Shown here piece by piece: positions 5,939-60,955 of a stretch of 64,000 bases of DNA. The notes under the pieces are model-generated. The model was not told the DNA's origin. It did not search any database and was given only the letters and a program-made list of their open reading frames with translations. Made by a program: the position numbers and the translations under genes. Numbering within the stretch: position 1 is the stretch's first letter; each line of letters opens with the position of its first letter. Source of the DNA: a bacterium (GTDB lineage: Bacteria; UBA10199; JACPAL01; GCA-016699445). Location: positions 2,510-66,509 of the forward strand of contig DASUFF010000030.1 of NCBI GenBank assembly GCA_036274695.1. The letters run 5' to 3'.

Positions 5939-6526
5939 ATGGAAGAAACTCCGGGCCCGGATTTCGTCGGCCTCGCCATTGAACGGGGGAAAGCCGCGGT
6001 CAAAGACGCCCTTTGGAAGGGCGTGGCCTGGCTGTTTCTCGTCGCGGTGGCGGGTCTGCTTTTGTTGATGGCCGCCGCCTTCGCGTTTTACGGGGCGGCG
6101 TTGGGGGTCGGCGAGGCGCTGGGCCACCGCGTTTGGCTGGGCTACCTGATCACCGGGACTGCGTTTCTCCTGCTCGTTTTTTTCGCCTTACTGATTCAAA
6201 GATTCCGGTCGAAAAGGAAGAAAAAGGTTCTCTTCCGCAAGACGGCGGAATCCACGGACCGCTTGGTCGGGATCTTCGATCCCCGTCCCTGGATACGGGA
6301 TCACCCGTGGCAGACGACGAGCCTGGCCGCCTTGGGCGGGTTCGCGGTGGGCTTTCGGATGGAAATGCCGGGGGCGGGCGCCTCCGCGGCACCGACGTCC
6401 GAAGGGGCGCTGGGCAAGCCTTCCTTCCTGGACGAGCTGATCGCCGCGGGTCTGGAGATCCTCAAAAACGCGCTGACTCCCATCCTGGCCACCGAAGTCG
6501 CCAAGCGGATCAATCAAGAGGAATAA
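5939..6526 (+). CDS. YqjE-like (DUF1469, phage-holin-3_6-like) two-TM membrane protein with a C-terminal extension
   Basis: It starts 6 nt after the DUF883 stop, behind an AAGGGA ribosome-binding site. It has two adjacent TM helices followed by a basic stretch (RFRSKRKKK), as in E. coli yqjE, which follows yqjD. Confidence 0.5.
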   Translation: MEETPGPDFVGLAIERGKAAVKDALWKGVAWLFLVAVAGLLLLMAAAFAFYGAALGVGEALGHRVWLGYLITGTAFLLLVFFALLIQRFRSKRKKKVLFRKTAESTDRLVGIFDPRPWIRDHPWQTTSLAALGGFAVGFRMEMPGAGASAAPTSEGALGKPSFLDELIAAGLEILKNALTPILATEVAKRINQEE

Positions 6527-6536
6527 GGAATACCGG

Positions 6537-6911
6537 CTATTGCAGGAATTCGCAGCCGACCGGCGGCGATTCGCTGTTCAACGCCTCGCAGGGCGAGTCG
6601 GTGATGGCCTTCTTGCAGCCGTCCACGGTTTCCTGAGTTACCTTCAGGTCCGGGGATTTTTTCAGGTTATCCGCGATGCCGGCGGAAATCTCCTGAAGGC
6701 ATTGGTCCTTGTTGAATTGAGCGTTGTCCTTGTTGCAGGTCTCGTATTTGCCGCAGATCGCCGGCGCCAGCGTCTTGCCGATCTCCGCCACGTCGATCGC
6801 CTTCGGGGCGCTCGAAACCATCTCCTTCATCTTTTCGGGAGAACATTTCGTGCATCCCGAAAAGCCGGCCGCCGCAACGACCGCCACTGCCAACATAAGA
6901 ATTTTCTTCAT
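6537..6911 (-). CDS. Small Cys-rich lipoprotein, function unknown
   Basis: It has a signal peptide with lipobox AAGFSGC. It contains eight Cys residues and a Lys-rich mature domain. Confidence 0.5.
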   Translation of the reverse strand: MKKILMLAVAVVAAAGFSGCTKCSPEKMKEMVSSAPKAIDVAEIGKTLAPAICGKYETCNKDNAQFNKDQCLQEISAGIADNLKKSPDLKVTQETVDGCKKAITDSPCEALNSESPPVGCEFLQ

Positions 6912-6997
6912 GATCCCCTCCTGAACGGTCCGCCCAAGCTACCAGTTTTACGAGGATTTGAAAGATAAAAATCTCCCGAAGCGGTAGGATAGCCGAC

Positions 6998-7861
6998 GTG
7001 GCTTCCTTGAAGAAACGCCTGCCCGCCAACGCCCCCGGCGACTTCTACGTCGACGCGACCTGCATCGACTGCGACACCTGCCGCTGGATGGCGCCGGAGA
7101 CCTTTGCCGAGAAGGACGGCAAGTCCTACGTCCACACCCAGCCCGGCGATCCGGAGCGAAGGCTGCGCGCGCTCAAGGCGCTGACGGCCTGCCCCACGGC
7201 GTCGATCGGGACGGAGGCGCGCCACGACATGGCGCCGGTCTTCGAAGCGTTGCCCGACTCCATAGAAGGCAACGTCTTCCACTGCGGCTTCCACGCGGAG
7301 GACAGTTTCGGCGCGGCCCCCTATCTCATCGTCCGTCCGCAGGGGAATATCCTCATCGATTCGCCCCGGTTCGCGTCCCCGCTCGTCAAGCGGTTGGAGG
7401 CGCTGGGCGGCGTGAAGACGCTCTTCCTCACGCACGGCGACGACGTGGCCGACCACCGCAAGTTCAAGGAGCATTTCGGCTGCGAGCGCATCCTGCACGC
7501 CGGCGACGTGCGCGCGTCGACCGAAGACGTCGAATTCAAGCTGGAAGGGGAGGAGGCGGTGCGCTGGGATAAGGAGATCCTCTTCCTCCCGACGCCGGGA
7601 CACACGAAGGGCTCGGCCTGCCTTCTCTATCGCGATCGTTTCCTCTTCACCGGCGATCACCTGGCCTGGGACGACGACGCGAACCGGTTGGAGGCCTTTC
7701 GGAACGCCTGTTGGTACGATTGGAAGGTGCAGCGGGAATCGATGAAACGCCTGGCGGACTACTCCTTCGGATGGGTCCTGCCCGGACACGGGCGGCGCGT
7801 TCACCTGCCCGCCGACCGGATGGCGACCGAACTGCAACGCTTGGTGGAGTGGATGGCGTGA
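6998..7861 (+). CDS. Ferredoxin-domain and metallo-beta-lactamase-fold fusion protein
   Basis: The N-terminus carries a single-cluster ferredoxin motif, CIDCDTCRWMAPETF with a downstream CP. The remainder is an MBL fold. It shows ILIDSP, a degenerate motif 2 (LTHGDDVADH instead of HxHxDH), and then PGHTKG, FTGDH and LPGHG. Confidence 0.6.
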   Translation: MASLKKRLPANAPGDFYVDATCIDCDTCRWMAPETFAEKDGKSYVHTQPGDPERRLRALKALTACPTASIGTEARHDMAPVFEALPDSIEGNVFHCGFHAEDSFGAAPYLIVRPQGNILIDSPRFASPLVKRLEALGGVKTLFLTHGDDVADHRKFKEHFGCERILHAGDVRASTEDVEFKLEGEEAVRWDKEILFLPTPGHTKGSACLLYRDRFLFTGDHLAWDDDANRLEAFRNACWYDWKVQRESMKRLADYSFGWVLPGHGRRVHLPADRMATELQRLVEWMA

Positions 7862-8010: not shown

Positions 8011-8400
8011 TCAGTTCGTCTTCAAGCCCTTTCGCTCCAGGGACCTGGCCTTTTCCGCGGTCTTCTTCCGATTCACCGTCTTTAATTTTTCGCGCTGCTC
8101 GGGTGTCAGGAGGGCCTGAAACTTGGCGTCGCTCTCGGTCTTGACGGCCTCGCGTTTCGCGCGGAAGTCCTCATAAAGGGATTTCAGCTTCTTATCGCGC
8201 TCCTGGTAGATCGCTCGAAGCTTCTCCTGTTGGTCCGCCGTCAGGTTCAGGTCGCTGGAGAGGCCTTGCGCGCGGCTTTCGGCGCGTTCCCGGCGCGGCT
8301 GAGGAGCCTCTTGCGCGGGATGCCATTCCGCCGTTGCCGCGGGGCCGGCGCAAAGAGCGACAAAGGCAAAAAACAGGGCCGACGTTTTCGAAAGGCGCAT
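8011..8400 (-). CDS. Spy/CpxP-family periplasmic protein (LTXXQ motif)
   Basis: It has a signal peptide and two LTXXQ motifs (LNLTADQQEKL and LLTPEQREKL). It is charged and helical. Confidence 0.7.
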   Translation of the reverse strand: MRLSKTSALFFAFVALCAGPAATAEWHPAQEAPQPRRERAESRAQGLSSDLNLTADQQEKLRAIYQERDKKLKSLYEDFRAKREAVKTESDAKFQALLTPEQREKLKTVNRKKTAEKARSLERKGLKTN

Positions 8401-8553
8401 GGATTCCTCCTTCGGAAGTGTGCCTGGTGACGGGTTAGACAGACGCCCGCCCGGCGCTGGGGTATTTGAAACGATTTCAGAGCAATATCAAGCACGTGGG
8501 GCGCCGACACTTTCGGGCGCTTCCTTTCGTCTAATCCCACAGGAGGAAAGGTT

Positions 8554-8880
8554 ATGAAAAAAGGATTGGTGATCGGCGCGTTGGCTTTGGGATTGACGGC
8601 CGGAGGAGCGGCTCTCACGACGTCGCAGGACCTCTTCGCACACGCCAAGGAGTTCAAGGCCAAGATGGAGGAGCGCCAGCAGAAAAGGCTGGAGAAGATG
8701 ACCCGCGAGCTGAACCTGACCTCGGATCAGAAGGCGAAGATCCAGTCGCTCTTCAACGATCAGCGCGCGAAGATGAAGGCGATCCGCGAGGAGACGCATA
8801 CGAAGATGCTGGCCCTGCTCAACGCCGACCAGAAGGCGAAACTAGAAAAATGGCGTGAGGGGAAGCGCAAGAAGGACTAG
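8554..8880 (+). CDS. Spy/CpxP-family periplasmic protein (LTXXQ motif)
   Basis: It has a signal peptide and two LTXXQ-type motifs (LNLTSDQKAKI and LLNADQKAKL). The SD is AGGAGGAAAGG. Confidence 0.7.
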   Translation: MKKGLVIGALALGLTAGGAALTTSQDLFAHAKEFKAKMEERQQKRLEKMTRELNLTSDQKAKIQSLFNDQRAKMKAIREETHTKMLALLNADQKAKLEKWREGKRKKD

Positions 8881-8889
8881 TCTTCCTTT

Positions 8890-9429
8890 GTGGCGCCGGA
8901 ACGCGATGATTTCGAGGAGTTTGTCCGAGGCCAGCGGGAGCGCATGCTTCGGCTTTGCGCCGGGATCCTGTCGGATCCCGGCCAGGCCGAGGACGCCGCC
9001 CAGGAGGTTTTCGTGAAGGCCTACCGCGCCTGGGAGAATTTCCGCGGGGAGAGCTCGCGGTCGACCTGGCTCTACCGGATCGCCGTGCGCCACTGCGTCG
9101 ATCTGCTGCGCTTCCAGCAGCGTCTGCGCCGGATGTTCGCCACCGAAGGCGACGCGGCCGCGGAGGCGATGCAGGAGGCCCCCGGCGCGGAGGGCCGGCT
9201 GCCGGGATTCGAGACGGCGGTGGAATCGCGCATCGCCGCCAAGGAGATCCTGTCGGCCCTGCCGGAAGGGGACCGAGTGCTTCTGTCCTTAAGGGAGATC
9301 GAGGGATTGTCGTACGAGGAAATGGCGCGCGTTTTGGAGATTTCGGTGGAGGCCGTGCGTTCGAGGCTCGCACGCGCGCGACGCGCGCTGGCGCGCGTGT
9401 GGGAGAAAAGGCTTCAAGAGGGATCATGA
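8890..9429 (+). CDS. ECF (RpoE-like) sigma-70 family sigma factor
   Basis: It has a GTG start. Region 2 reads AQEVFVKAYRAWENFRGESSRSTWLYRIAVRHCVD. Region 4 reads LSLREIEGLSYEEMARVLEISVEAVRSRLARARRAL. Confidence 0.85.
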   Translation: MAPERDDFEEFVRGQRERMLRLCAGILSDPGQAEDAAQEVFVKAYRAWENFRGESSRSTWLYRIAVRHCVDLLRFQQRLRRMFATEGDAAAEAMQEAPGAEGRLPGFETAVESRIAAKEILSALPEGDRVLLSLREIEGLSYEEMARVLEISVEAVRSRLARARRALARVWEKRLQEGS

Positions 9430-9887
9430 AGAACGGCGACGAACATCTGCAGGTTTATCTTTTGGACGATCCGGAGACGGACGCCTCCGGGCGCCGCTCC
9501 ATCGAGGCGCATTTGGCGGGCTGCGCCGATTGCCTGCGTTCGCTGGAATCCTACCGCCGCGCCCGGCGGCTGATCGCGCCCCCGGAGGTTTCGCCGGAAA
9601 TTTCGGAGGTATCGACGGGGGATTTCGTGGAAAGGGTCTTTTCCAAGGTGGACGCCAAGCAAGCCTCGTCGCGGGAGGCCGGCAAACGCCGCTCGGTCTG
9701 GGCCTGGCCGGCCGCGGCCTTCGCGCTCGCGGCGGCGTTCGCGGCCGCCCTCTACTTCGGGTCCGCGCGGCCGGAGACGGATCAGGATCTGCTGGCGGGC
9801 GGGAACGAAGACTTTTATGAATGGGCGACGACGTCCGCGAGCCCGTCCGACGAGGACGTCTTGAAGGTCGTCTTGGAGGATCTCTGA
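9426..9887 (+). CDS. Zinc-finger (ZAS-type) transmembrane anti-sigma factor
   Basis: It overlaps the sigma gene stop by 4 bp. It carries an HLAGCADC (Hx3Cx2C) motif and one TM segment, WAWPAAAFALAAAFAAALYF. Confidence 0.7.
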   Translation: MKNGDEHLQVYLLDDPETDASGRRSIEAHLAGCADCLRSLESYRRARRLIAPPEVSPEISEVSTGDFVERVFSKVDAKQASSREAGKRRSVWAWPAAAFALAAAFAAALYFGSARPETDQDLLAGGNEDFYEWATTSASPSDEDVLKVVLEDL

Positions 9888-10261
9888 TGATTTCCTGGAA
9901 AACTCTGCTGGCGGGCTTTCTGATCGGTCTCATCGCCGGCGGCGGCTGGGGGGCGTGGTACGCGAAGGAGCACGGGCACTTCTGGGACAAGCCCGGGGGC
10001 CGCGAGGTCCGGCTTCTGAAGGAATTCACCCGTGAATTGGATTTGACGGACGCACAACGCGCGTCCGTCAGCGCCATCCTTCAAAGCCAGAGAGGGAGGA
10101 TCAAGGCGATTCGCTCCGAAATCCGCCCGCGCATGGAAGAGATCCGGGAGCAGGCCGGCGGAGAGATCCGCGCCTTGCTGGGCCCCGACCAGCAGGAGCG
10201 CTTCGATGTCCTGCAAATGCGCATGAAAGAGGAAAGGCGCAAGCGCGAGGAAAACCGCTGA
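9887..10261 (+). CDS. Membrane-anchored Spy/CpxP-like LTXXQ protein
   Basis: It has an ATGA overlap with the anti-sigma stop and an N-terminal TM helix. It carries LTXXQ-type motifs (LDLTDAQRASV and LLGPDQQERF). Confidence 0.65.
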   Translation: MISWKTLLAGFLIGLIAGGGWGAWYAKEHGHFWDKPGGREVRLLKEFTRELDLTDAQRASVSAILQSQRGRIKAIRSEIRPRMEEIREQAGGEIRALLGPDQQERFDVLQMRMKEERRKREENR

Positions 10262-10352
10262 ATCGATAAAAATTAGACGCTTTCCCCTTCCCGCCGCAAG
10301 GCGTTACAATACCCCTATCCCTCACGTCAGGACGATCCACCGGGAGGCGCTT

Positions 10353-11252
10353 GTGCGCGCGGCATGGCTTTTTGTCTGCGTGCTTTTTGTATCCGCGACG
10401 CTGCTGGGCGGCGGGCCGGCGGGGTGCGGCCAGACGGCCACCGAAGAACAGGCGGCCGTCGACACGGACGGCGACGGCGTGGTCGACGAAAGCGACAATT
10501 GCACGGCGGTCGCGAACGCGGACCAGGGCGATGCGGACGGCGACGGCGTCGGCGACGCCTGCGACGTCACCGCCTGCGAGGAGCAGGGCTACGATTGCCA
10601 GAGCCCTCTTTTTCTCTCCTGCGAAACCAAATCCGATTGTCTTTGTCTGATCGACGGCTGCGGCGAGACCTCGGGCGGCGTTCTGGACGCCGACCGGTTG
10701 GATTGCTGCAACGGTTTCTGCGTGAGCTTCGTCGATACGCCGCTGGAAACCTGCGAGGACCTGGCCGAGGCCGCGCCCGCCTGCTCGGAGACGGGCCACG
10801 TCTTTCCCGAATGCGGCTTCAGCGTCGGATGCGACGGCCGGGTGGCTTCCCCCGGATTCTTCGAGTGCCAGGCGGGCTGTTGCGGAAGGCGCCTGCCGGC
10901 CTTCATCGGCGAGGGCGAGCCCTGCGTCGCAGATCCCCTCTCCGAGCCCCAGTGCGATTTCGGAATGGCCTGCGTCGACGGGACGTGCGCCAAGATCTGT
11001 CCGGACGACGGCGCGGGCCAAGCGATCCTGACCTGCGAACAAGTGGCCCTGTTCGGTCCCGAGGGCGATTGCGGAAATTTCGGTTACGAGCCTTGCGATG
11101 AGGAGACGGGTTGTTGCGGCGCCCCGTTGCCGGCCGGTCCCTGCGACCCGTATCCCAGCTGCGGCGACGTCGGAAACGATTGCGCGGCCGTCGGCCTGGA
11201 AGGAGTCTGCGCGACGCCGGACGAGTGCTGCGTGTTGCCACCGGAGCCCTAA
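10353..11252 (+). CDS. Secreted Cys-rich protein with thrombospondin type-3 (DxDxDGxxDxxDNC) calcium-binding repeats
   Basis: It has a signal peptide. TSP3-like repeats read DTDGDGVVDESDNCTAVANADQGDADGDGVGDACD. These are followed by about 40 Cys in CxxC/CC clusters. Confidence 0.6.
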   Translation: MRAAWLFVCVLFVSATLLGGGPAGCGQTATEEQAAVDTDGDGVVDESDNCTAVANADQGDADGDGVGDACDVTACEEQGYDCQSPLFLSCETKSDCLCLIDGCGETSGGVLDADRLDCCNGFCVSFVDTPLETCEDLAEAAPACSETGHVFPECGFSVGCDGRVASPGFFECQAGCCGRRLPAFIGEGEPCVADPLSEPQCDFGMACVDGTCAKICPDDGAGQAILTCEQVALFGPEGDCGNFGYEPCDEETGCCGAPLPAGPCDPYPSCGDVGNDCAAVGLEGVCATPDECCVLPPEP

Positions 11253-12373
11253 TGACCATCACAAAGCCGATTCGTGCGCCGATCGCCGTTTTGCTGGCCG
11301 CGGTGGCCCTGGTGGCGGAGTGCTCCAGCCCCGGGGCGCCTCCGAGGCCGCCGGCCGAGATCCCGGGCTTGGTCGCGTTTCCGCAAAGCGTGGAGATCGA
11401 CGTATCGACCATCTCCTCCGGCGCCGTTCCCGCGGCGCTTTCGACGCCCAAGGCGGCCGTGGGGGCGGGCGGGGAATTCTCCAGCGCCATTACGACGGGC
11501 GCGGACCTGATCCGCACCATCTACAAGGTGTTCGTGGAGATCGGGTTGAGGCCGCTTACCCGCGTCCAGGCGCCGGTCGATCCGACGGTGACGCGGTTCG
11601 AAGCGACGGTGACGGAAGGGGCCACGCCGGGGGATTTCAAGATCGATTTTGCCGATTTCGACCTGGACGGCGACGGCGCCTCGGAAGGCTGCACCGGCTG
11701 CACCTGCCCGACCGGCTGCACCGGCGTTTCCTGCCCCGCGTCGGCCCCTCTCGAAAGCCTCAAGCCCGTCTGTTACCGCGTCTGGTTCCGGGAGGAGGGG
11801 GGATCGTCGTTCACGCGGCTGATGGCCGGCGTCTTCGAGCGGCTGGCGGTCGCGGACGACGCGGCGACGCCGGAGGACGAGAACAATCCCGGCGCCGGCC
11901 GTTTCCGCCGGTTCGGTTTCAACTTCGGGGACGTCTCCAGCGACTTCGCCTCTTTCTACGATTTTCTCGATCCGGACGATCCTCTGAACCGCTCTTCGGA
12001 GGTTTTCCTAAAGACCGTGACGGAGGACCCGGGCGGGGCGATCACGACGTTCAACCATCTGGACGCCGTTCAGATCGGGGACGCCCCGCAAAAGACCGTG
12101 CGCGTGACGGCGGGAGCGGCGTCCAGCCCGCCGAACGAGGTCTTCAAGTACCGGGGAGGTTTCCGGGAAGATGAAGACTTCTTCAGCGGCGTCATTCAAA
12201 ATCCCTCCGAGCTTTTGGAGTTCTGCGCCCGCATCTCGACAGGCGACGCGGCGGAGGATCCGGGCGCGTGCGACGCCCTCGGGATTTCCGTCGTGCCTTT
12301 GCCGTTCCTGAACTTCGCCTCGGAGGACGACGTCGCCGTTCCGGCGGGATTTCCCGAAACGCCTACTTTTTAG
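11252..12373 (+). CDS. Lipoprotein of unknown function with a DxDxDG calcium-binding motif and a Cys cluster
   Basis: It has a TAATG overlap with the upstream gene. The signal peptide carries lipobox LVAEC. It contains FADFDLDGDGASEGCTGCTCPTGCTGVSCP. Confidence 0.55.
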   Translation: MTITKPIRAPIAVLLAAVALVAECSSPGAPPRPPAEIPGLVAFPQSVEIDVSTISSGAVPAALSTPKAAVGAGGEFSSAITTGADLIRTIYKVFVEIGLRPLTRVQAPVDPTVTRFEATVTEGATPGDFKIDFADFDLDGDGASEGCTGCTCPTGCTGVSCPASAPLESLKPVCYRVWFREEGGSSFTRLMAGVFERLAVADDAATPEDENNPGAGRFRRFGFNFGDVSSDFASFYDFLDPDDPLNRSSEVFLKTVTEDPGGAITTFNHLDAVQIGDAPQKTVRVTAGAASSPPNEVFKYRGGFREDEDFFSGVIQNPSELLEFCARISTGDAAEDPGACDALGISVVPLPFLNFASEDDVAVPAGFPETPTF

Positions 12374-12821
12374 ATTGTCTTAAATTCCGGAAAAAACGGG
12401 AGAGGATGTCCCCGCATTCGGTCTTCCGTACGCCGCGGGCGACTTCGATGCGGTGATTGAGCCGGCGATCCCCGGACAGGTCATAGAGGGAGCCGCAGGC
12501 CCCGGCCTTGGGGTCCATCGCTCCGAACACGAGACGTCCCACGCGCGCCTGGATCAAGGCGCCCATGCACATCAGACAGGGCTCGAGCGTGACGTAGACG
12601 GCGACGTCGTTCAGCCGCCATCGCTTCAGCTTCCGCGCGAGCTTGCTGATCAGATAGATCTCGGCGTGGCCGAGAGGGTCGTTCTTGGACTCGCGAAGGT
12701 TGTGGGCGCGCGCGAGGACCTTTCCGTTTCGGACGGCCACGGCGCCGATGGGGGCTTCCTTTTTTGCGGCCGCCTTCTCCGCCTCCCGGAGGGCCGCCTC
12801 CATGAATCGTTCGTCACTCAA
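12363..12821 (-). CDS. tadA: tRNA-specific adenosine deaminase
   Basis: It has the CMP/dCMP deaminase zinc motifs HAEI and PCLMCMGA. It overlaps panE by 4 bp. Confidence 0.85.
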   Translation of the reverse strand: MSDERFMEAALREAEKAAAKKEAPIGAVAVRNGKVLARAHNLRESKNDPLGHAEIYLISKLARKLKRWRLNDVAVYVTLEPCLMCMGALIQARVGRLVFGAMDPKAGACGSLYDLSGDRRLNHRIEVARGVRKTECGDILSRFFRNLRQSKK

Positions 12822-39316: not shown

Positions 39317-39928
39317 TTGAAGACGCGGGCCGAAAAGAAGGCTTTGACCCGGCGGGATCTGGTCGACGCCGCCATTCGCTTGAGCGCGGACCGGGGCTTC
39401 GCCGGATTAAGCCTGCGCGAAGTTTGCCGGGCGGCGGGGCTGACGCCGACCGCTTTCTATAGACATTTCAAGGATATGGACGACTTGGGGCTTGCGTTGG
39501 TCGACGAGGTGGCTTTGTCCTTAAGGCGCCTCATGCGCGAGGCGCGGCAGAAAGCGGAAGGGAAGGGGAGCCGCGTCGAGTCCTCGGCCGAGGCCTTCGT
39601 GGCCTTCATTCGCCAAAACGCCCATCTGTTCCGTCTTTTGCTCGGCGAGCGGTCCGGAAGCTCGGCCGGATTCCGAAAGGCGATCCGGCGGGAGATGAAT
39701 CTCTTCGTTTCGGAGCTGTCCGAAGATCTGCAGAGGGTGGCGGCGCTGACGAACCGGCCGTTGGTCGATCCCCTTCTGACCTCCGAGATCATCGTGGCTT
39801 TGGTGTTCACCGTCGGAGCCGAGGCCCTGGACCTTTCGCCGGCGGAGGCGCGCCGTTTGACGAAACGGCTGATCCGGGAGATCCGGATCGTCCTCAGAGG
39901 GTCCGAATCCTTGGCCGAGAGAAGTTAG
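39317..39928 (+). CDS. TetR-family transcriptional regulator, divergent from the desaturase (DesT-like arrangement)
   Basis: It has a TTG start. The N-terminal HTH reads LTRRDLVDAAIRLSADRGFAGLSLREVCRAAGLTPTAFYRHF. Confidence 0.7.
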   Translation: MKTRAEKKALTRRDLVDAAIRLSADRGFAGLSLREVCRAAGLTPTAFYRHFKDMDDLGLALVDEVALSLRRLMREARQKAEGKGSRVESSAEAFVAFIRQNAHLFRLLLGERSGSSAGFRKAIRREMNLFVSELSEDLQRVAALTNRPLVDPLLTSEIIVALVFTVGAEALDLSPAEARRLTKRLIREIRIVLRGSESLAERS

Positions 39929-41994
39929 TCGGCTTCGAACGACTCGGAGCACGAGCCGCCAATGGAATTCTGGCAGGTCAGATGAAGAGTGAGGTTCGAT
40001 TCGATGCTCACGCGGCAGGAATGCCCGGGCGCGCCGAAGATCGATAGATCGGTGTTTGTCGAGTCGGCCGTGTCGCTTTCCTCGCTTTCGGGCACGAACT
40101 CCTGGGCGCCGTTGGTCCCCAATGGGTTCAGCTCCACGCCTTCGGGGGTTTCTTCGAGTCCGAAACCGTCCGTGATCCCGCAGCCGGTATCTTGCGGCGT
40201 GTAGGTCTTGCCGACGGCCGGCGTGAAGGGGCTGGTGACCGTCCCTCCGGTGGTTCCCGAACCCGAACAAACAACGTTGATATTTAAAGACCGCTGAAAT
40301 CCCCAAGCCTGCGAGGTGACGGTGGCGCTGCAAGGCGATCCCGGCGCCGTGTAGGTCAGGGTGCGGTCGGTTTGATGGATGTCGCCGATCACTTCGTGCT
40401 CGAGGACGCCGACGGGATTGAGCGACCCGCAACCCTCGAGGGCGATGGTGTCGTGGTTCACGCAGGCGTTGTTGTGATGGCAAAGGGTCGTGACGCTGTT
40501 GCAGGCCACCGTGATGGTCTCCGGATTCGTCGTAGGATCGTGGGCGTCGCAGACGGACCGGCTCGCGCTTAAGACCAAGGCCTTCTCCTGGACGTCGATG
40601 TTCTGGCAGTTCCTTTGAAGATGATTGTTCCAGCAGGACGTGAGCTTCTTCAAGCCCGCCGCCCCGAGCACCAGGTTTTTCACCGTCCCGCGCTCGTTCA
40701 CGCAGCAATTCAAGTCCACGTATTGTTCGCAGGTCGACCCAAAGTAGGCCGCTGCGTGCCGGGCGAAGTTGTGGGGACGGCCGGCGGCCGGCCAGTAGGA
40801 GCCGTTGTAATCCAGACAGCAGCCTTCCGCGTTGCTCGCTCCGCAAACGATGTGGGTGGTCTTTGTCGGAGGAACGATTCCCAACGCCACCGCCAAGGGA
40901 GCGTCGCTGGTATCGGTCAGAGGCACGCCACCGCACTGACCTTCGCTCGTATCGTCCATCGTGCAGGGATCCAGGAAAGGGACCTTCTGGACGATGGGAT
41001 CGGGCGATGCGAGCCGGCACAGGGGCAGGATCATCACCGGTTCGTCGTGGGTGAGGTCCTTGTAGACCTTGGCCGTCACCACGCCGGGAGGAATCGAAGG
41101 AATCGTGAAATTCCCGTCCGAATCGGCCATGACAGCGAGCGACGTATCGTTCTTGCCTCCCAGCGTGATCCAGTTGCCCTTCATCGGCGTCGGGTCGGTG
41201 AAGAAGCCGGAGCCGCTCAAAGTGACGTTCGCCGGGACGATGGACGGATCTTTGGTGATCTCGGCCAACTCCGCCGGGGTGAGATCGTCGCGGGAGGCGA
41301 CGAAAAGGAGACGGCCGCTTAAAGGACCCGCGCCCGGCGAGGCGCAGGCGACGTCTACGGGATTAGCTTCGGGAATACCATCGCCGTCGGTGTCGCTTCC
41401 GGTTAAGAAACCGGCCTCATTGTCGTCGGGGATTCCGTCGGCGTTGGTATCGAACCTGATGGGTTCGATGGCCGGAAAAGCGATCGTTTTGCCCGAAGCG
41501 CCGGCGAAGGCGATCCCCCGGGCCGAGAGGTCCGACGAGAAATCGGAGGGATTCAACAGCGTGAGCGTGCCCAAATCAGACGTCTGGGATTCGCCCATCT
41601 TTACGAAGGACGTGAGTTTGAGCGATTTCCCGTCGTTCAACTGCGTCGGATCCTGCCAGGACAACACCGCCCCGACGTCGCCGGAGTCGTCCAAAAATTG
41701 CAGATAGCAGGATTTGCCCTTGGCGAGCGTCGCGGAGAAGGAGCAGTCCGCGCCGATGTCGAAATCGGAGGCCGCGCCGTCGCAGACCACGCGGACGGAG
41801 GCGAATCCTCCGCGACAGCCCGCCGTTTCGCCCTTGGAGGCCTGAAGCGCCGTCGGTTCTTCGGTAGGCAGCCGTCCGGTCAATGCGGGGTTTCCGAATT
41901 CGGAACCACCGGTGGCCGATCCGCAGCCTCCGGAGGCGAGGGGAAGGGACAGAACGGTCACCGATAGGATGGCGAGAAGAAAGCGAGCTCCCAT
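39925..41994 (-). CDS. Large secreted Cys-rich lipoprotein with thrombospondin type-3-like calcium-binding repeats
   Basis: It has lipobox LASGGC. It carries DTNADGIPDDNEAGFLTGSDTDGDGIPEANPVD and more than 40 Cys. Confidence 0.6.
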   Translation of the reverse strand: MGARFLLAILSVTVLSLPLASGGCGSATGGSEFGNPALTGRLPTEEPTALQASKGETAGCRGGFASVRVVCDGAASDFDIGADCSFSATLAKGKSCYLQFLDDSGDVGAVLSWQDPTQLNDGKSLKLTSFVKMGESQTSDLGTLTLLNPSDFSSDLSARGIAFAGASGKTIAFPAIEPIRFDTNADGIPDDNEAGFLTGSDTDGDGIPEANPVDVACASPGAGPLSGRLLFVASRDDLTPAELAEITKDPSIVPANVTLSGSGFFTDPTPMKGNWITLGGKNDTSLAVMADSDGNFTIPSIPPGVVTAKVYKDLTHDEPVMILPLCRLASPDPIVQKVPFLDPCTMDDTSEGQCGGVPLTDTSDAPLAVALGIVPPTKTTHIVCGASNAEGCCLDYNGSYWPAAGRPHNFARHAAAYFGSTCEQYVDLNCCVNERGTVKNLVLGAAGLKKLTSCWNNHLQRNCQNIDVQEKALVLSASRSVCDAHDPTTNPETITVACNSVTTLCHHNNACVNHDTIALEGCGSLNPVGVLEHEVIGDIHQTDRTLTYTAPGSPCSATVTSQAWGFQRSLNINVVCSGSGTTGGTVTSPFTPAVGKTYTPQDTGCGITDGFGLEETPEGVELNPLGTNGAQEFVPESEESDTADSTNTDLSIFGAPGHSCRVSIESNLTLHLTCQNSIGGSCSESFEAD

Positions 41995-42016
41995 GGTCCC
42001 CCCGTGTGCGGGTGAT

Positions 42017-42466
42017 TTATTTGACTTCGCGATTGATGATCACGTCCACGTCCCGGTCTCCGACGCGCGCGGGAACCTTCACGGCCGTTCCTTCGAGATC
42101 GCCCGGCTGGGCCGGGCCGGCGCCGCCGTCCTTGTCGATGCGGGCGAGCACGCGGACCTCGCCTTGGAACGGTGTGCCGGGGAACATGACGTCGCTCGCG
42201 GTCAAGGCGTAGGCGACGGGAAAGGCCGGGCTCGCAATTTTTTTGACGGCGAGCGGCGGTCCCACGTCCTTGCGGGCGATGACGAAGAGCACGTCGGTCG
42301 GCTGGATTTTCGCCTGGACCTCCGGCGCCACCGAGATCAGGCCGGTGATCGTCGCGCCTTCGTTGATGTCGGCGACCGGCGCCGAATCGCCTTGGGAGCA
42401 GGCGTATAAAAAGGCCGAAGAACAAAGTCCGAAGAGGGCGATAAGACGCGAGGCGCGGGATGTCAT
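42017..42466 (-). CDS. Small lipoprotein, hypothetical, co-oriented with and upstream of the large lipoprotein gene
   Basis: It starts at MTSRASRLIALFGLCSSAFLYAC with a lipobox. The rest is beta-rich. Confidence 0.5.
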   Translation of the reverse strand: MTSRASRLIALFGLCSSAFLYACSQGDSAPVADINEGATITGLISVAPEVQAKIQPTDVLFVIARKDVGPPLAVKKIASPAFPVAYALTASDVMFPGTPFQGEVRVLARIDKDGGAGPAQPGDLEGTAVKVPARVGDRDVDVIINREVK

Positions 42467-54272: not shown

Positions 54273-54357
54273 TTTTTTCTTGCCCCCCACGGGTATCCTG
54301 TGCCAATTTCCGTTCAATCTTAACCAACCAGTTAATCAACGAAATAGGGGGATTTTC

Positions 54358-56103
54358 ATGGAACCCACTCAGATCCAATCCGTTGACGAGATCATCCAGC
54401 AGCGTTTGGCCGAAAAGCGGAACGCCTTGATGGCCGAGGCGGGCTTGAAAAAGCCGGTGCATCACTTCGAGCGTCCCAAGGAAAACCCCTTCCTGAAATC
54501 CCAGCGCGGAACGACGAAGGTCCTCTTCGGCGGCCTCACGTGGAAACACGAAAAGCTGATCCAGGCCGCGTGGGAAGGCTTGGGCTACATCGCCGAACCG
54601 GTTGAAGTGCCGGACGTGAAGGCCTTCCAGTTGGGTAAGGAGTACGGCAACAACGGCCAGTGCAACCCGACCTACTTCACCGTCGGCAACCTCGTACAGC
54701 ATCTCCAAAAGCTGGAAGAGAAGGGGATGAGCAAGCAGGAGATCATCGACAAGCACATCTTCATCACAGCCGGGGCCTGCGGCCCTTGTCGGTTCGGCAT
54801 GTACGAGGCTGAGTATCGGCTCGCTCTCCGCAACTCCGGCTTCGACGGCTTCCGCGTCATCCTCTTCCAGCAGTCCGGCGGCTTGAACCAGTCCGACGCC
54901 GAGCAGGGCCTGGACATGAACCTCGATTTCTTCCTCGGCATCTTAAACGCCATGAACATGGGCGACCTGATCAACGACATCGCCTACCAGATCCGTCCCT
55001 ACGAGGTGACCAAGGGCGAGACCGACCGCGTCCTCGGCGAATGCATGGATTACCTGTTCGGCGTGATGAAGAACCACAAGCCGTTCAAGCTGGAAGGCAA
55101 GATCGCGAAGTTCCTGCGCGCGCTGCCCAGCGCGGCCTCGACCACGGAATACGTCGGTAAGTTCCTCTCGCAGCTTTTGGGCGACGAGTACGTGAAGGCT
55201 TTCGCGGAGGTCGGTCGCCGTTTCAACGCCATCGAGATCGACCGCACGCGCGCCAAGCCCATCGTCAAGATCACAGGCGAGTTCTGGGCCCAGACCACCG
55301 AGGGCGACGGCAACTTCAACATGTTCCCCTTCTTGGAAAAGGAAGGCGCCCAGGTTCTGGTGGAGCCGATCGGGACATGGATCATGTATATGATCCATCA
55401 GGTCGTCCAAAAATATAAGGACCAGAAGGGGCTCGAAGACGGGGCGACGTTGCCGTCCTGGAGCAAGTTCGGAAAGCGCCTGTCGATCGAGTCGAATTAC
55501 CGCAAGAAGGTGGCGAAGTTGAAAGTGGCCGAACGCATCTTCGAGCGCGAATGGAACCGCCTGCGCGGGGCCCTCGGAAACATGCCGCACGCGCTCGCCA
55601 ACCAGTACGAACTCCAGCGCGAAGGGCATCCGTATTACAACAGCCGCGCCGGCGGCGGCGAAGGCCACTTGGAAGTCGCTAAGAACATCTACTACTCGCA
55701 CAAGGACCTGGCCCACATGGTGTTGTCGGTCAAACCCTTCGGTTGTATGCCGTCCACCCAGTCGGACGGCGCGCAGGCCGCGGTCGTGTCTCAATATAAA
55801 GACATGATCTATCTGCCCATCGAGACCTCCGGTGAAGGCGCCGTCAACGCGCACAGCCGCGTGCAGATGGCCTTGGGCGAGGCCAAGTTCAAGTGCAAGG
55901 CCGAGTTCGCCGACGCGGTGAAGTCGACGGGCTATACGCTCCCCGAAATCCAGGAATACATCCAGGCTCATGCCGAGCTGAAGACGCCATTTTATCATGT
56001 GCCGCATTACAAGGGCATCGTGGGCGTGGCTGCGAGTTTCGTGAAGCACGTCGGCGAGCGGATGGCGAAGGACGGCGTGAAGGCGCAGGCGAAGGCGGCG
56101 TAA
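54358..56103 (+). CDS. Acyl-CoA dehydratase/activase-related protein (DUF2229/HgdB-like component, no ATPase domain)
   Basis: It is 581 aa. It carries the Cys-containing blocks FITAGACGPCRFGMYE and VKPFGCMPSTQSDGA. It is co-oriented with, and 70 bp upstream of, the fused activase gene. Confidence 0.6.
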   Translation: MEPTQIQSVDEIIQQRLAEKRNALMAEAGLKKPVHHFERPKENPFLKSQRGTTKVLFGGLTWKHEKLIQAAWEGLGYIAEPVEVPDVKAFQLGKEYGNNGQCNPTYFTVGNLVQHLQKLEEKGMSKQEIIDKHIFITAGACGPCRFGMYEAEYRLALRNSGFDGFRVILFQQSGGLNQSDAEQGLDMNLDFFLGILNAMNMGDLINDIAYQIRPYEVTKGETDRVLGECMDYLFGVMKNHKPFKLEGKIAKFLRALPSAASTTEYVGKFLSQLLGDEYVKAFAEVGRRFNAIEIDRTRAKPIVKITGEFWAQTTEGDGNFNMFPFLEKEGAQVLVEPIGTWIMYMIHQVVQKYKDQKGLEDGATLPSWSKFGKRLSIESNYRKKVAKLKVAERIFEREWNRLRGALGNMPHALANQYELQREGHPYYNSRAGGGEGHLEVAKNIYYSHKDLAHMVLSVKPFGCMPSTQSDGAQAAVVSQYKDMIYLPIETSGEGAVNAHSRVQMALGEAKFKCKAEFADAVKSTGYTLPEIQEYIQAHAELKTPFYHVPHYKGIVGVAASFVKHVGERMAKDGVKAQAKAA

Positions 56104-56172: not shown

Positions 56173-59100
56173 ATGTCAGAAACCAAATTCCTAGTCGGCG
56201 TCGACGTCGGTTCCACCACGGTCAAGGCGGTCGTCGTTGAAGTGGCCACCGACAAGATGATCTGGAGCGACTACCAGCGTCACGAGACCAAGCAGCCGGA
56301 AAAGACCCTCGAGCTCTTGAAGGAGATCGAGGACAAGACCGGCGTCTGCGCCGGCAACACCCGGATGTTCATCACGGGCTCCGGCGGCGGGGGGATCGGC
56401 GCGCGGTTGGGCGCCAAGTTCGTCCAGGAAGTGAACGCGGTTTCGCTGGCGGTGGAAAAGCTTCATCCGGAGGTTCAGTCCGTCGTCGAGTTGGGCGGCC
56501 AGGACGCCAAGATGATCTTCTTCAAGGAGATCGAGGAATCCGGAAAAAAGAAAAAGATGCCGACGATGAACGATAAATGCGCCGGCGGCACGGGCGCCGT
56601 CATCGACAAGATCAACGCCAAGTTGCGCATCCCCTCGGAACAGCTCTGCCAATTGGGACACACGGGCATCAAGCTGCATCCCGTCGCCGGCAAGTGCGGC
56701 GTGTTCGCCGAGTCCGACATCAACTCGCTGCAGAAAATGGGCATTCCGAACGACGAGCTCATGGCGTCGCTGTTCGAATCCATCATCGTTCAAAACCTGT
56801 CGGTTTTGACTCGGGGCAATACCCTCAAGCCCACCGTCCTCCTGTTGGGCGGCCCCAATTGTTATATCAAGGGCATGAAGGAAGCCTGGCGGAACAACAT
56901 CCCCAAAATCTGGGAAGAGCGCGGCGTGGAAGTGCCGGACAAACCCATCGAAGAATTGATCAAGGTCCCGGAGAACGCCCAGTACTACGCGGCGTTGGGC
57001 GCCATCGAGTACGGCAAGACGGAGGACGAGGACATCGGCCAATACAAAGGCGCCGGCGAACTCGAGCACTACATCAAGGTCGGCCGTCAGGAAGAAATGG
57101 CGAAAAAGGCGGCCCAAAGCGGCGGCGGCAAGGGCTTGATCAAGGACGAAGCGGAGTTAAACGAATTCCTGGATCGCTATAAGAAGGAAAAATTCATCCC
57201 CACGACGTTCGAAGCGGGAACGGTGGTGGAGGGGTTCATCGGTTTGGACGGCGGTTCGACGTCGACCAAGGCCGTGCTCGTCAGCAAGGACAAGAAGATT
57301 TTGGCCAAGGCCTACCAGCTTTCGAAGGGCAATCCGATCCAGGACACCATCGAGGTCATCGGAAATCTGCAAAAAATGATCGAGGACCAGGGCTGCACGA
57401 TGAACGTCTTGGGCATCGGGACGACCGGTTACGCCAAGGACATCTTGAAGGATACTCTGAACGGCGACGCCGCCATCGTGGAAACGGTCGCGCACACGGA
57501 ATCCGCCCTGCATTTTTATCCGGATACGGACGTCATCGTCGACGTCGGCGGGCAGGACATCAAGGTGATGATCCTGAAGAACGGCCGCGTCAAAGACTTC
57601 AAGCTCAACACCCAGTGCTCCGCCGGCAACGGTTACTTTCTGCAGTCGACCGCCCAAGGCTTCGGCGTTCCCGTGGAAGATTTCGCCGCGAAGGCCTTCT
57701 CGGCGAAGACGTTCCCGGAATTCGGCTACGGCTGCGCCGTCTTCATGCAGTCCGACATCGTCGATTTTCAGCGCCAGGGTTGGAAGCCGGAAGAGATCAT
57801 GGCGGGACTCGCCAACGTGTTGCCGAAAAACATCTGGCTCTACGTCTCTCAGATCCCGAATCTGTCTTCGCTCGGCACCAAGTTCGTCCTGCAAGGCGGC
57901 ACCCAGCATAATATGGCGGCGGTCAAATCCCAGGTGGATTTCATCGAATCGCGCTTCAAGGACAAGGGGCTCAAGCCCGACGTCGTCGTTCACAAGCACT
58001 GCGGCGAGGCCGGGGCCATCGGCGCCGGCATCGAAGCCGCGCGCCTTTACGCCAACGGGCATCGCACGAAGTTTATCGGGTTGGACCGCGTGAAGGAGAT
58101 CACCTACCGCACCACCCGCAGCGAAGAGACGCGATGTTACTTCTGCAAGAACAAGTGCCTGCGCACGTTTATCGACGTGAAGACGAAGAGCACGACGGAG
58201 ATTAAGGCGGAAGACGTGCCGGTGTTCAAGTCGAAGGTGCCGCTGGAGCCGGGAGAGAATCGGATCATCATCGCCACCTGCGAAAAGGGCACGGTCGAGG
58301 ACGTCAACGCCATGCGCGGCATCAAGAAGGGGCTGGACGCCATCAAGGAGAAGAACCCCAACATGGTCCACTGGGCCGCGGAGAACGTTTGGAAGTCGTT
58401 CAAGCCGCCCTTGGTGGCAGACGCGATCCCGGAAAAGATCAAGAACGATAAGATGAAGGCGCGCGTCGAGCTTATGAAGCGTCGCGCCGAGCTGAAAATC
58501 GGCATCCCGCGCGTGCTCAATCAGTATTCGACGAACCCGTTGTTCACGGCCTACTTCGAATCGCTGGGGATCCAGCCGCAGAACATCGTCTATTCCGACT
58601 TCACCGACGAGAAGCTCTACAAGGACGGCGCCAAGCGCGGCGCGATTGATCCGTGCTTCCCGTCCAAGGTCGGTATCCCGCACGTGCACAATCTGCTCTT
58701 CACGCAGCACGAGAAGAAGAAGCTCGATTACATCTTCTTTCCGATGATCGACGATTTGCTCACGCCCTTGAAGAACGTCCAGGCCAGCCGCGCCTGCCCG
58801 ACCGTCACCGCGACGCCGGAGGCCGTGAAGGCCGCGTTCACCAAGGAAGGCGACATCTTCGCGGAAAAGGGGATCAAGTACCTTGACACCTTCGTGAACG
58901 TCGGTACGCCGAAACTCTTCGAACGCCAGATGTTCGAGCAGTTCGTGGATATCCTCGGGCTCTCGCCCGAGGAGAACGCCCGCGCCGTCGCCGAAGGCTA
59001 CAAGGCTTTGAAGGCTTTCGACGATACGCAGCGGATCATGGGACGCGAGACCATCGAAATGTTGGAAAAGGAAAACCGCCTCGGCGTCGTCTTGCTCGGC

Positions 59101-59655
59101 CGCCCGTACCACAACGATCCCGGAATCAATCACGAGATCTTGGAGGAGTTCCAAAAATTGGGCTATCCGGTGCTCACGCAGGATTCCTTGCCGATCGATC
59201 GGGACATCTTGGATCGGTTGTTCGGCGAAGAGGTCGAGAAGGGGATCGTGAGCCACGCGTTGGACGTCAAGGACGCCTGGAAAAACTCCTACTCCGAGAA
59301 CACCACGCGCAAGGTTTGGGCCGCGAAGTTCGCCGCGCGCCATCCGAACCTGGTGGCCTTGGAGCTCTCCAGTTTCAAGTGCGGTCACGACGCGCCGGTC
59401 TACACCGTGGTGGAAGAAGTCATCGAGCACTCGGGCACGCCCTACTTCTGCTTCAAGGACATCGACGAGAACAAGCCCACCGGATCGATCAAGATCCGCT
59501 TGGAGACGATGCACTACTTCCTGACCCGCTACCGCGAGGACATGCTCAAGGCCGAGAAGAAGCTGGAAGGCATCGAGGCGGAATTGAAGGCCTACGAAGA
59601 ACAGTTGCGGCGGGAGTTGGGGGCGGGGTATCAGCCGAGCGTCGTTAATTTGTAG
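56173..59655 (+). CDS. CoA-substrate-specific enzyme activase fusion: two BadF/BadG/BcrA/BcrD-type ATPase domains plus a C-terminal 2-hydroxyacyl-CoA-dehydratase-like region
   Basis: It is 1160 aa. The two ASKHA phosphate-1 loops are VGVDVGSTTVKAVVV and IGLDGGSTSTKAVLV. The C-terminal half has conserved Cys blocks (ASRACPTV, SSFKCGHDAPV). Confidence 0.75.
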   Translation: MSETKFLVGVDVGSTTVKAVVVEVATDKMIWSDYQRHETKQPEKTLELLKEIEDKTGVCAGNTRMFITGSGGGGIGARLGAKFVQEVNAVSLAVEKLHPEVQSVVELGGQDAKMIFFKEIEESGKKKKMPTMNDKCAGGTGAVIDKINAKLRIPSEQLCQLGHTGIKLHPVAGKCGVFAESDINSLQKMGIPNDELMASLFESIIVQNLSVLTRGNTLKPTVLLLGGPNCYIKGMKEAWRNNIPKIWEERGVEVPDKPIEELIKVPENAQYYAALGAIEYGKTEDEDIGQYKGAGELEHYIKVGRQEEMAKKAAQSGGGKGLIKDEAELNEFLDRYKKEKFIPTTFEAGTVVEGFIGLDGGSTSTKAVLVSKDKKILAKAYQLSKGNPIQDTIEVIGNLQKMIEDQGCTMNVLGIGTTGYAKDILKDTLNGDAAIVETVAHTESALHFYPDTDVIVDVGGQDIKVMILKNGRVKDFKLNTQCSAGNGYFLQSTAQGFGVPVEDFAAKAFSAKTFPEFGYGCAVFMQSDIVDFQRQGWKPEEIMAGLANVLPKNIWLYVSQIPNLSSLGTKFVLQGGTQHNMAAVKSQVDFIESRFKDKGLKPDVVVHKHCGEAGAIGAGIEAARLYANGHRTKFIGLDRVKEITYRTTRSEETRCYFCKNKCLRTFIDVKTKSTTEIKAEDVPVFKSKVPLEPGENRIIIATCEKGTVEDVNAMRGIKKGLDAIKEKNPNMVHWAAENVWKSFKPPLVADAIPEKIKNDKMKARVELMKRRAELKIGIPRVLNQYSTNPLFTAYFESLGIQPQNIVYSDFTDEKLYKDGAKRGAIDPCFPSKVGIPHVHNLLFTQHEKKKLDYIFFPMIDDLLTPLKNVQASRACPTVTATPEAVKAAFTKEGDIFAEKGIKYLDTFVNVGTPKLFERQMFEQFVDILGLSPEENARAVAEGYKALKAFDDTQRIMGRETIEMLEKENRLGVVLLGRPYHNDPGINHEILEEFQKLGYPVLTQDSLPIDRDILDRLFGEEVEKGIVSHALDVKDAWKNSYSENTTRKVWAAKFAARHPNLVALELSSFKCGHDAPVYTVVEEVIEHSGTPYFCFKDIDENKPTGSIKIRLETMHYFLTRYREDMLKAEKKLEGIEAELKAYEEQLRRELGAGYQPSVVNL

Positions 59656-60628: not shown

Positions 60629-60955
60629 ATGTTGCTGGCCCCGATTTTAGCTAAATGCCCCACCTGTGGTTCGCAGGACGTCTTCTATAGTTGCCACGTC
60701 ACCTGCTGTTTCAACCACGTCTGTAACGAATGCCGGACCACCTTCGAGTTGGCGACGGACGCCTCCGGGGATCGTTATGAAGGGACTTTTCCCGACCCCG
60801 GCGAGCGCGATACCTCGCTCCCCATGGCCCCTTGCGCGGTTTGCGAAAAGGCCGAGGTCTATCAATTGCCTGAAGGCGGCAATCTCGTTTGCTCCTCCTG
60901 CCGGGCCCTTTTGTCTCTCCGTTACGAGAAGATCGTTCCCGACCGAAAAGGTTGA
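60629..60955 (+). CDS. Double zinc-ribbon small protein
   Basis: CPTCGS…CHVTCC…CNEC at the N-terminus and CAVCEK…CSSCRA at the C-terminus. Confidence 0.45.
   Translation: MLLAPILAKCPTCGSQDVFYSCHVTCCFNHVCNECRTTFELATDASGDRYEGTFPDPGERDTSLPMAPCAVCEKAEVYQLPEGGNLVCSSCRALLSLRYEKIVPDRKG

Follow-up and report, generated by a model that had tools for sequence, protein, structure and literature searches.

Two adjacent genes in a 64,000-nucleotide stretch of bacterial DNA (contig DASUFF010000030.1 of assembly GCA_036274695.1, positions 2,510 to 66,509; hereafter the window) overlap at their stop and start codons and encode a cysteine-rich protein and a beta-rich partner, both probably exported, that recur side by side in relatives. 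Protein A carries a thrombospondin type-3 (TSP3) calcium-binding unit followed by a Cys-rich tail. Protein B is the constant member of the pair and belongs to an unannotated family with a predicted beta-rich fold. In 16 independent informative loci, the window among them, a gene of the B family adjoins a gene for an A-like protein; the literature searched does not describe this arrangement. We favour, with about as much belief as doubt, the reading that A and B are made together as a dedicated pair, are anchored by lipid outside the cytoplasm, and act jointly in the envelope.

An earlier reading of the window, made from the letters alone (the sequence-only reading), had recognised TSP3 repeats and dense Cys clusters in A, a TAATG coupling of A to a second probable lipoprotein, and the lack of any functional characterisation of the two proteins. 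All of this holds. That reading had also taken A and B for the first of two paralogous modules in the window, which does not hold (see below). Judged by the sequences compared, the real partner relation is the one it missed, that of A with B, conserved across the whole B family.

Protein A Carries a Canonical TSP3 Unit and a Divergent Cys-Rich Tail

Gene A has a ribosome-binding site, GGGAGG, 6-7 nt 5' of its GTG start, and this site is kept in L012 (the loci of relatives are numbered L001 to L018). Residues 37-71 of A (DTDGDGVVDESDNCTAVANADQGDADGDGVGDACD) score 29.1 bits against Pfam TSP_3 (PF02412; cut-off 25, E=8e-7), in two stretches. We assigned proteins to TSP_3 by the Pfam gathering threshold together with the pattern DxDxDGxxDxxDNC...NxxQxDxDxDGxGDxCD; A passes the threshold and carries the pattern. 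When PDB sequences were searched with phmmer, the unit aligned end to end with the solved repeats of COMP (3fby, E=1e-22). The repeats of thrombospondin-1 and -2 were likewise matched end to end, and the bacterial OmpA-family TSP3 protein 5wtl (Dai et al. 2017, as cited in PMC12045341) was a weak match. Fifteen columns of the unit are invariant in the A-like partners: D37, D39, D41, D48, N49, C50, N55, Q58, D60, D62, D64, G67, D68, C70, and D71. As in COMP, the thrombospondins, and the OmpA-family proteins, this is a canonical 35-residue unit with its Asp motifs and Cys pair. A differs from those proteins in having a single unit and not a long array, in its C-terminus, where neither an OmpA or lectin-like domain nor any other known one is present, and in the attachment of the unit to a lipobox and an unclassified Cys-rich region.

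The 299 residues of A include 36 Cys (12%). Signal peptide and lipobox account for one each, which leaves 34 for mature A, and mature B has 8. As these are even numbers, all the Cys of mature A and mature B could pair as disulfides. The C-terminus of A reads ...CCVLPPEP and has no MYXO-CTERM tag.

No Pfam or NCBIfam model matches the Cys-rich region of A. The sequence-only reading had proposed a check against Myxococcus Cys-rich repeat models; no such model reaches its cut-off, and neither the Myxococcus-type Cys-rich repeat nor the acidic double-disulfide repeat of NCBIfam matches the window's A at E<=1. Direct searches returned only two full-length relatives, P0001 (89% identity) and P0002 (73%), and all other matches covered the TSP3 stretch only. 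More distant A-like proteins were recovered through synteny. Their likeness to A covers the lipobox, the invariant residues of the TSP3 unit, and a core of ~90 aa at the C-terminus (LTCxQ...G..GxC..F...C...GCC...PDP..C), the only part of the tail of A that aligns with them. A profile of the tail matched only 5 proteins among 5.8 billion, so that the tail would either have a narrow distribution or have diverged too far to pass the word filter of the search. The best NCBI match to A (89%) comes from a different assembly, and B has a 100% identical record; gene A may be unannotated in the public metagenome-assembled genome record, or may have been given another start there.

Protein B Belongs to an Unannotated Family with a Confidently Predicted Fold

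The NCBI protein identical to B is the hypothetical protein VFX30_02220. A word-indexed search gave 27 relatives of ~340-425 aa with 32-100% identity, all without Pfam domains. When 1.84 billion representatives (clusters at 50% identity) were searched exhaustively with a profile, the family grew to 254 clusters at E<=1e-3 (212 at E<=1e-10), and in nearly all of them the match spanned the full length. Neither the window's B nor any of the 26 aligned members has a Pfam match, and the window's B matches nothing in NCBIfam. When the family profile was compared with PDB sequences nothing credible was found, the one hit being a chance match to EBP2 (E=0.014).

The motif FDLDGDG...CTGCTCPTGC, which the sequence-only reading had quoted for B, is present at residues 136-162 (FDLDGDGASEGCTGCTCPTGCTGVSCP). 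It belongs to residues 130-174, where an invariant, Asp-rich loop of the DxDxDG calcium type is followed by a six-Cys knot. D132, D137, C147, and C174 are invariant in the alignment, and K130, F133, G142, G149, and T151 vary little. In 4 family members the inner four Cys of the knot have been lost together. C325 and C340 are also invariant and, with C147 and C174, make two invariant Cys pairs. Other conserved features are Cys24 after the signal peptide and the C-terminus ...FPxxPTF, each invariant across the alignment, a PPxPPxEIP tether, and the motifs CYRxW and CARISTG...C.

With the family alignment, AlphaFold2 gave a confident model of B (pLDDT, the predicted local distance difference test, 87; predicted template modelling score 0.83), in which the Cys-knot loop reaches a pLDDT of ~96. 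The predicted fold is a 28-residue helix (residues 77-104) followed by 12 long antiparallel strands. This order of helix and strands, the invariant C-terminal Phe, and the presence on most strands of one hydrophobic and one charged face are what would be expected if B were a beta-barrel of the outer membrane, embedded there or oligomeric, by which A is exported or kept at the surface in the manner of an autotransporter translocator or the TraB barrel. We consider this improbable. A closed amphipathic barrel with a hydrophobic belt towards the lipid and a C-terminal beta-signal strand ending in Phe was looked for in the model and not found: 4 of the 12 strands lack a hydrophobic face, and the terminal Phe lies outside any beta-signal strand because the final 45 residues are proline-rich and non-beta. 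The model superposes over 170-188 residues on barrels of 18-22 strands and not on 12-strand ones, and would therefore be an open sheet of low curvature. In Foldseek all template modelling (TM) scores were below 0.3 (at most 0.27, with E>=0.04), the weak matches being to Osh/ORP and lipocalin-like barrels. B has no sequence relation (3-10% identity) to these, to TonB-dependent receptors, to porins, or to autotransporter translocators, and differs from such barrels in its lipobox, its disulfide loops, and its non-beta C-terminus. The resemblance of the modelled B to beta-barrels is only generic, and B is probably soluble and not a transmembrane barrel.

Genes of the B Family Adjoin a Cys-Rich Partner in 16 Loci

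We counted an A-B pair wherever a B-family gene adjoins a gene for a signal-peptide protein with >=6% Cys and TSP3 or DxDxDG motifs. The 16 loci so found are the window, L001/2/16 (one locus), L003-L015, and L018; apart from L017, no informative locus with a B homolog lacked such a neighbour. The B protein of L012 is 91% identical to that of the window and that of L005 ~75%; identity in the other loci is 25-44%. All partner proteins have a signal peptide, 6-13% Cys, and TSP3 or DxDxDG motifs. Whereas B can be aligned over its full length in all of them, the partners differ in size (166-1117 aa), and what they retain is the lipobox together with TSP3 repeats, acidic double-disulfide repeats, or both. 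Pfam TSP_3 is passed by 4 partners, and the acidic double-disulfide repeat model NF033662 (cut-off 41) by those of L003 (50.7 bits) and L011 (110 bits). The window's A is without that repeat, and its tail appears to be a different, narrowly distributed module. The partner in L011 also has a weak match to Cu-binding_MopE (PF11617).

The partner gene is co-directional and upstream of B, often with a start/stop overlap, in the window, L012, L005, L001/2/16, L004, L006, L007, L009, and L013. Overlaps of the kind seen in the window were found in L001, L005, L012, and L013. It is divergent and upstream in L003, L008, L010, L015, and L018, and downstream of B in L011 and L014. B genes can also be multiplied around a partner: three surround a 1117-aa partner with 122 Cys in L010 (1197-8397), and two flank a 425-aa partner in L003 (3457-7209).

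The proteins might also be functionally independent lipoproteins that stand together only for co-expression. B would then be a half-barrel that carries a ligand or lipid, and A a calcium-binding protein with a structural part in the wall or matrix. Interaction of A with B is something that we infer, a curved sheet with a helix is generic for carriers of hydrophobic ligands (as the weak Osh/ORP and lipocalin-like matches recall), and the orientation of the partner gene is not fixed. The variety of orientations, however, argues for selection on proximity and not for inherited synteny. Adjacency has outlasted rearrangement, turnover of the domains of A, and divergence to ~25% identity, start and stop codons overlap in several lineages, and B paralogs cluster around single large partners. 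Independence of the two proteins therefore seems quite unlikely to us.

Several further genes lie near the pair. In L001, L004, L006, L007, and L009 a third, clade-specific gene just 5' of the A-like gene encodes a secreted protein of ~155-266 aa with 11-18 Cys and no lipobox (Table 1); it matches no Pfam or NCBIfam model and is absent from the clade of the window. In L007 a further TSP3 protein with acidic double-disulfide repeats is encoded downstream of B (6231-7121); its C-terminal tail, GGGCG-hydrophobic-basic, resembles a sorting tag of the MYXO-CTERM type, and it matches MtsC partially, over the repeat region (99 bits; cut-off 350). A Ser/Thr kinase of ~1140 aa with AAA_16 and TPR domains is found within a few kb of the pair in L003 (1-3405), L004 (1-767), and L006 (1-2880).

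Table 1: Positions of the genes and sequence features discussed in the text, in the window unless a locus is named.
Feature	Position	Strand	Remarks
Gene A	10353..11252	+	299 aa; GTG start; open reading frame and translation
Domain plan of A	10353..11252	+	Signal peptide with Cys25, then TSP3 unit, then Cys-rich tail
TSP3 calcium-binding unit (A residues 37-71)	10461..10565	+	Two DxDxDGxxD motifs between Cys50 and Cys70
Cys-rich C-terminal region of A (residues 72-299)	10566..11249	+	
TAATG stop/start overlap of A and B	11250..11254	+	One-base overlap, GGAG upstream
Gene B	11252..12373	+	373 aa; probable lipoprotein, unannotated family
B residues 130-174	11639..11773	+	KIDFADFDLDGDG; DxDxDG calcium-loop-like motif, then six-Cys knot C147-x2-C-x-C-x3-C...C161...C174
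LTXXQ/Metal_resist	8011-8400	-	Pfam
LTXXQ	8554-8880	+	Pfam
ECF sigma	8890-9429	+	Pfam
zf-HC2 anti-sigma	9426-9887	+	Pfam
LTXXQ/Metal_resist	9884-10261	+	Pfam
Protein C	39925..41994	-	689 aa; lipoprotein; 28 Cys, DxDxDG motifs
Protein D	42017..42466	-	149 aa; Ig_CycH lipoprotein (Pfam PF23892, E=2e-17)
Third accessory gene, L004	3687-4481		
Third accessory gene, L006	3701-4447		
Third accessory gene, L007	2874-3620		
Third accessory gene, L009	3643-4443		
Third accessory gene, L001	4751-5218		

A Model for the A-B Pair

In the model that we favour, A and B would be exported through Sec and would receive a lipid on the invariant Cys just after the signal peptide, and the Cys of the mature proteins would pair as disulfides during oxidative folding. 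A would contribute a TSP3 hinge stiffened by calcium and a fast-evolving, size-variable, disulfide-rich module. B would be the subunit that stays constant. Its 12 strands would curve as a sheet about the long helix, and its DxDxDG calcium-type loop, which may itself bind calcium, would be fused to the disulfide knot. The variable A could dock on this conserved platform or be anchored by it, and the two would form a calcium-dependent complex of the envelope or the surface.

Several observations weigh against this model. The window's own lipoboxes fail PROSITE PS51257, {DERK}(6)-[LIVMFWSTAG](2)-[LIVMFYSTAGCQ]-[AGS]-C near the N-terminus, A reading GPAGC with P at -3 and B reading VAEC with E at -1. 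The pattern is passed by 18 of the 26 B relatives and by 12 of the 14 A-like partners, and because of the failure in the window we take acylation of A and B from the family level. The AlphaFold2 model of A is poor (pLDDT 49, from an alignment of 6 sequences), and structure searches with B returned no functionally informative neighbour. L017 has only a weaker candidate partner, with 4.2% Cys and ~640 bp away. The linkage to extracytoplasmic function (ECF) sigma factor genes described below is restricted to one clade. Finally, physical contact of A with B is a proposal of the model, and the two proteins may lie in the outer membrane, at the surface, or in the periplasm.

Comparison with Known Surface Systems

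A loose parallel in design is the TraA/TraB outer-membrane exchange pair of Myxococcus xanthus, in which a lipid-anchored Cys-rich stalk stands on a beta-rich partner with TSP3 repeats (PMC12045341). Both systems have adjacent genes, a disulfide-rich lipid-anchored protein, a beta-rich partner, TSP3, and a variable and a conserved component (PMC12045341). The TSP3 unit is here on the Cys-rich A, not on the beta-rich B, and A and B are without a PA14-like variable domain, a MYXO-CTERM tag, or OmpA, the anchor being an N-terminal lipobox. The parallel is one of logic, without homology. We reject membership of A and B in TraA-TraB because the scores of A against the TraB and MtsC/D models lie far below their cut-offs (9.1 bits against 700 for TraB, NF033763) and no OmpA, PA14, or MYXO-CTERM is found in A or B. 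With the cell-cell cohesion proteins MtsC and MtsD, A shares TSP3 repeats; it scores 37 and 12 bits against NF047638 and NF047639 (equivalog cut-offs 350 and 800), over the TSP3 stretch only.

A bolder form of the model, which we regard as speculative and rather improbable, is that B is a new fold family whose sole task would be the reception, anchoring, or display at the cell surface of A, a hypervariable, disulfide-rich lipoprotein stiffened by calcium. An uncultured, deltaproteobacteria-like lineage would then have evolved independently a TraAB-like system for recognition or adhesion at the cell surface, in which turnover of the A module gives specificity and multiplication of B valency. 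Should the pairing be a physical complex, it would provide the first functional handle on the B family (~250 clusters) and on Cys-rich TSP3 lipoproteins, a class so far merely catalogued. It would also be a second, non-homologous design in the style of TraA/TraB, with a variable disulfide-rich stalk, a constant beta-rich partner, and calcium repeats. The findings themselves are a well-supported observation of comparative genomics in uncultured bacteria. They are of use in annotation, where B could be entered as a new domain family and its adjacency to A as a rule for gene pairs.

The Upstream ECF/LTXXQ Cluster

A five-gene cluster (8011-10261; Table 1) ends 91 bp before A. It is of the envelope-stress type, with an ECF sigma factor, a zf-HC2 anti-sigma factor, and three LTXXQ/Metal_resist genes, which are Spy/CpxP/ZraP-like. 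Its order is the same in L005 and L012, the two closest relatives of the window, and the interval from 10261 to 10353 contains no predicted terminator-like site. The ECF operon is preceded at 8505-8534 by the motif CGACACTTT-N13-TCGTCTAA, which is conserved in the window, L005, and L012 and looks like an ECF-type autoregulated promoter. A block upstream of A (10270-10310, AATTAGaCGCTTTcCC...CCG..AgGcGTTAcAA) is common to L012 and L005, and half-sites within it resemble the motif of the operon, with a spacer ~4 nt longer. ECF sigma factors rarely tolerate such a lengthening, and a shared ECF promoter for A is unproven because of it. The promoter check found no sigma-70-like promoter. In the clade of the window, A and B may be read through from the upstream cluster or co-regulated with it.

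A and B could on these grounds be effectors of envelope stress or metal homeostasis under the adjacent ECF sigma factor, working alongside the LTXXQ proteins, with A as a periplasmic thiol- and Asp-rich buffer of metal or calcium and B binding metal through CxxCxCxxxC. The conserved cluster immediately upstream, the lack of a predicted terminator before A, and the half-sites all speak for it. So do a multicopper oxidase gene in L007, TerC and Na/Ca exchanger genes in L003, an EF-hand protein gene in L005, and the weak Cu-binding_MopE match in L011. We think it unlikely. No distant locus has the ECF/LTXXQ context, and these loci also differ among themselves in their surroundings; the metal-related neighbours vary by locus, and the spacer upstream of A exceeds that of the operon promoter. 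In 4 family members B does without the inner four Cys of its knot, and even Cys counts together with an extracytoplasmic location favour disulfides over free thiols.

On the other side of the pair, the 3' end of B overlaps by 11 nt (12363-12373) a convergent tadA-like deaminase gene (12363-12821, minus strand). The deaminase and a ketopantoate reductase are kept as neighbours in L005 and L012.

The Locus at 39925-42466 Is Not a Second Copy of the Module

The sequence-only reading had placed a second module of the same kind at 39925-42466, with a small lipoprotein (D) and a 689-aa lipoprotein (C). Both open reading frames are there, and C contains DTNADGIPDDNE...DTDGDGIPE as stated. C has 28 Cys and not the more than 40 claimed, and it fails TSP_3: the model gives no match at E<=1, and the motif is a generic DxDxDG without the NC...Q...C frame. 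The sole Pfam signal in C is a sub-threshold CarboxypepD_reg, and PDB sequences contain no relative of C and no thrombospondin match at E<=1.

Each locus does consist of two adjacent lipobox-type proteins, and DxDxDG occurs in the large C as in the first protein, A. In BLASTP of A or B against C or D the best E value was 0.13, over the Asp-rich DxDxDG stretch only. Hidden Markov models of the A and B families, run against all open reading frames of the window of >=80 aa, matched A and B and nothing else at E<=1. Cys make up 4.1% of C, compared with 12% of A. In the first locus a TSP3/Cys-rich protein is followed by a 373-aa beta-rich one, and in the second a 149-aa Ig_CycH protein by one of 689 aa, so that sizes, gene order, and domain order differ. 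At the level of sequences and profiles the loci share no similarity beyond composition, the outcome named beforehand as refuting paralogy; we therefore reject it and give it next to no probability. The record is corrected accordingly: the window does not hold two paralogous modules. D and C, separated by a 22-nt gap, are an uncharacterised pair in their own right, flanked by genes for an HI0933-like flavoprotein, a TetR regulator, and a fatty-acid desaturase.

Other Features of the Window

The only RNA genes in the window are two tRNAs, unrelated to the A-B pair. Between 52000 and 62000 the G+C content is ~0.57, compared with ~0.62 elsewhere in the window. This region includes a 607-aa open reading frame without a Pfam match (54280-56103) and a 1160-aa protein of the BcrAD_BadFG/DUF2229 CoA-enzyme-activase type (56173-59655). 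Two small Cys-rich open reading frames, at 60629-60955 (plus strand) and 6537-6911 (minus strand), match no family; one encodes 108 aa with 11 Cys and CxxC pairs, possibly a zinc ribbon, and the other a 124-aa lipobox protein with 8 Cys.

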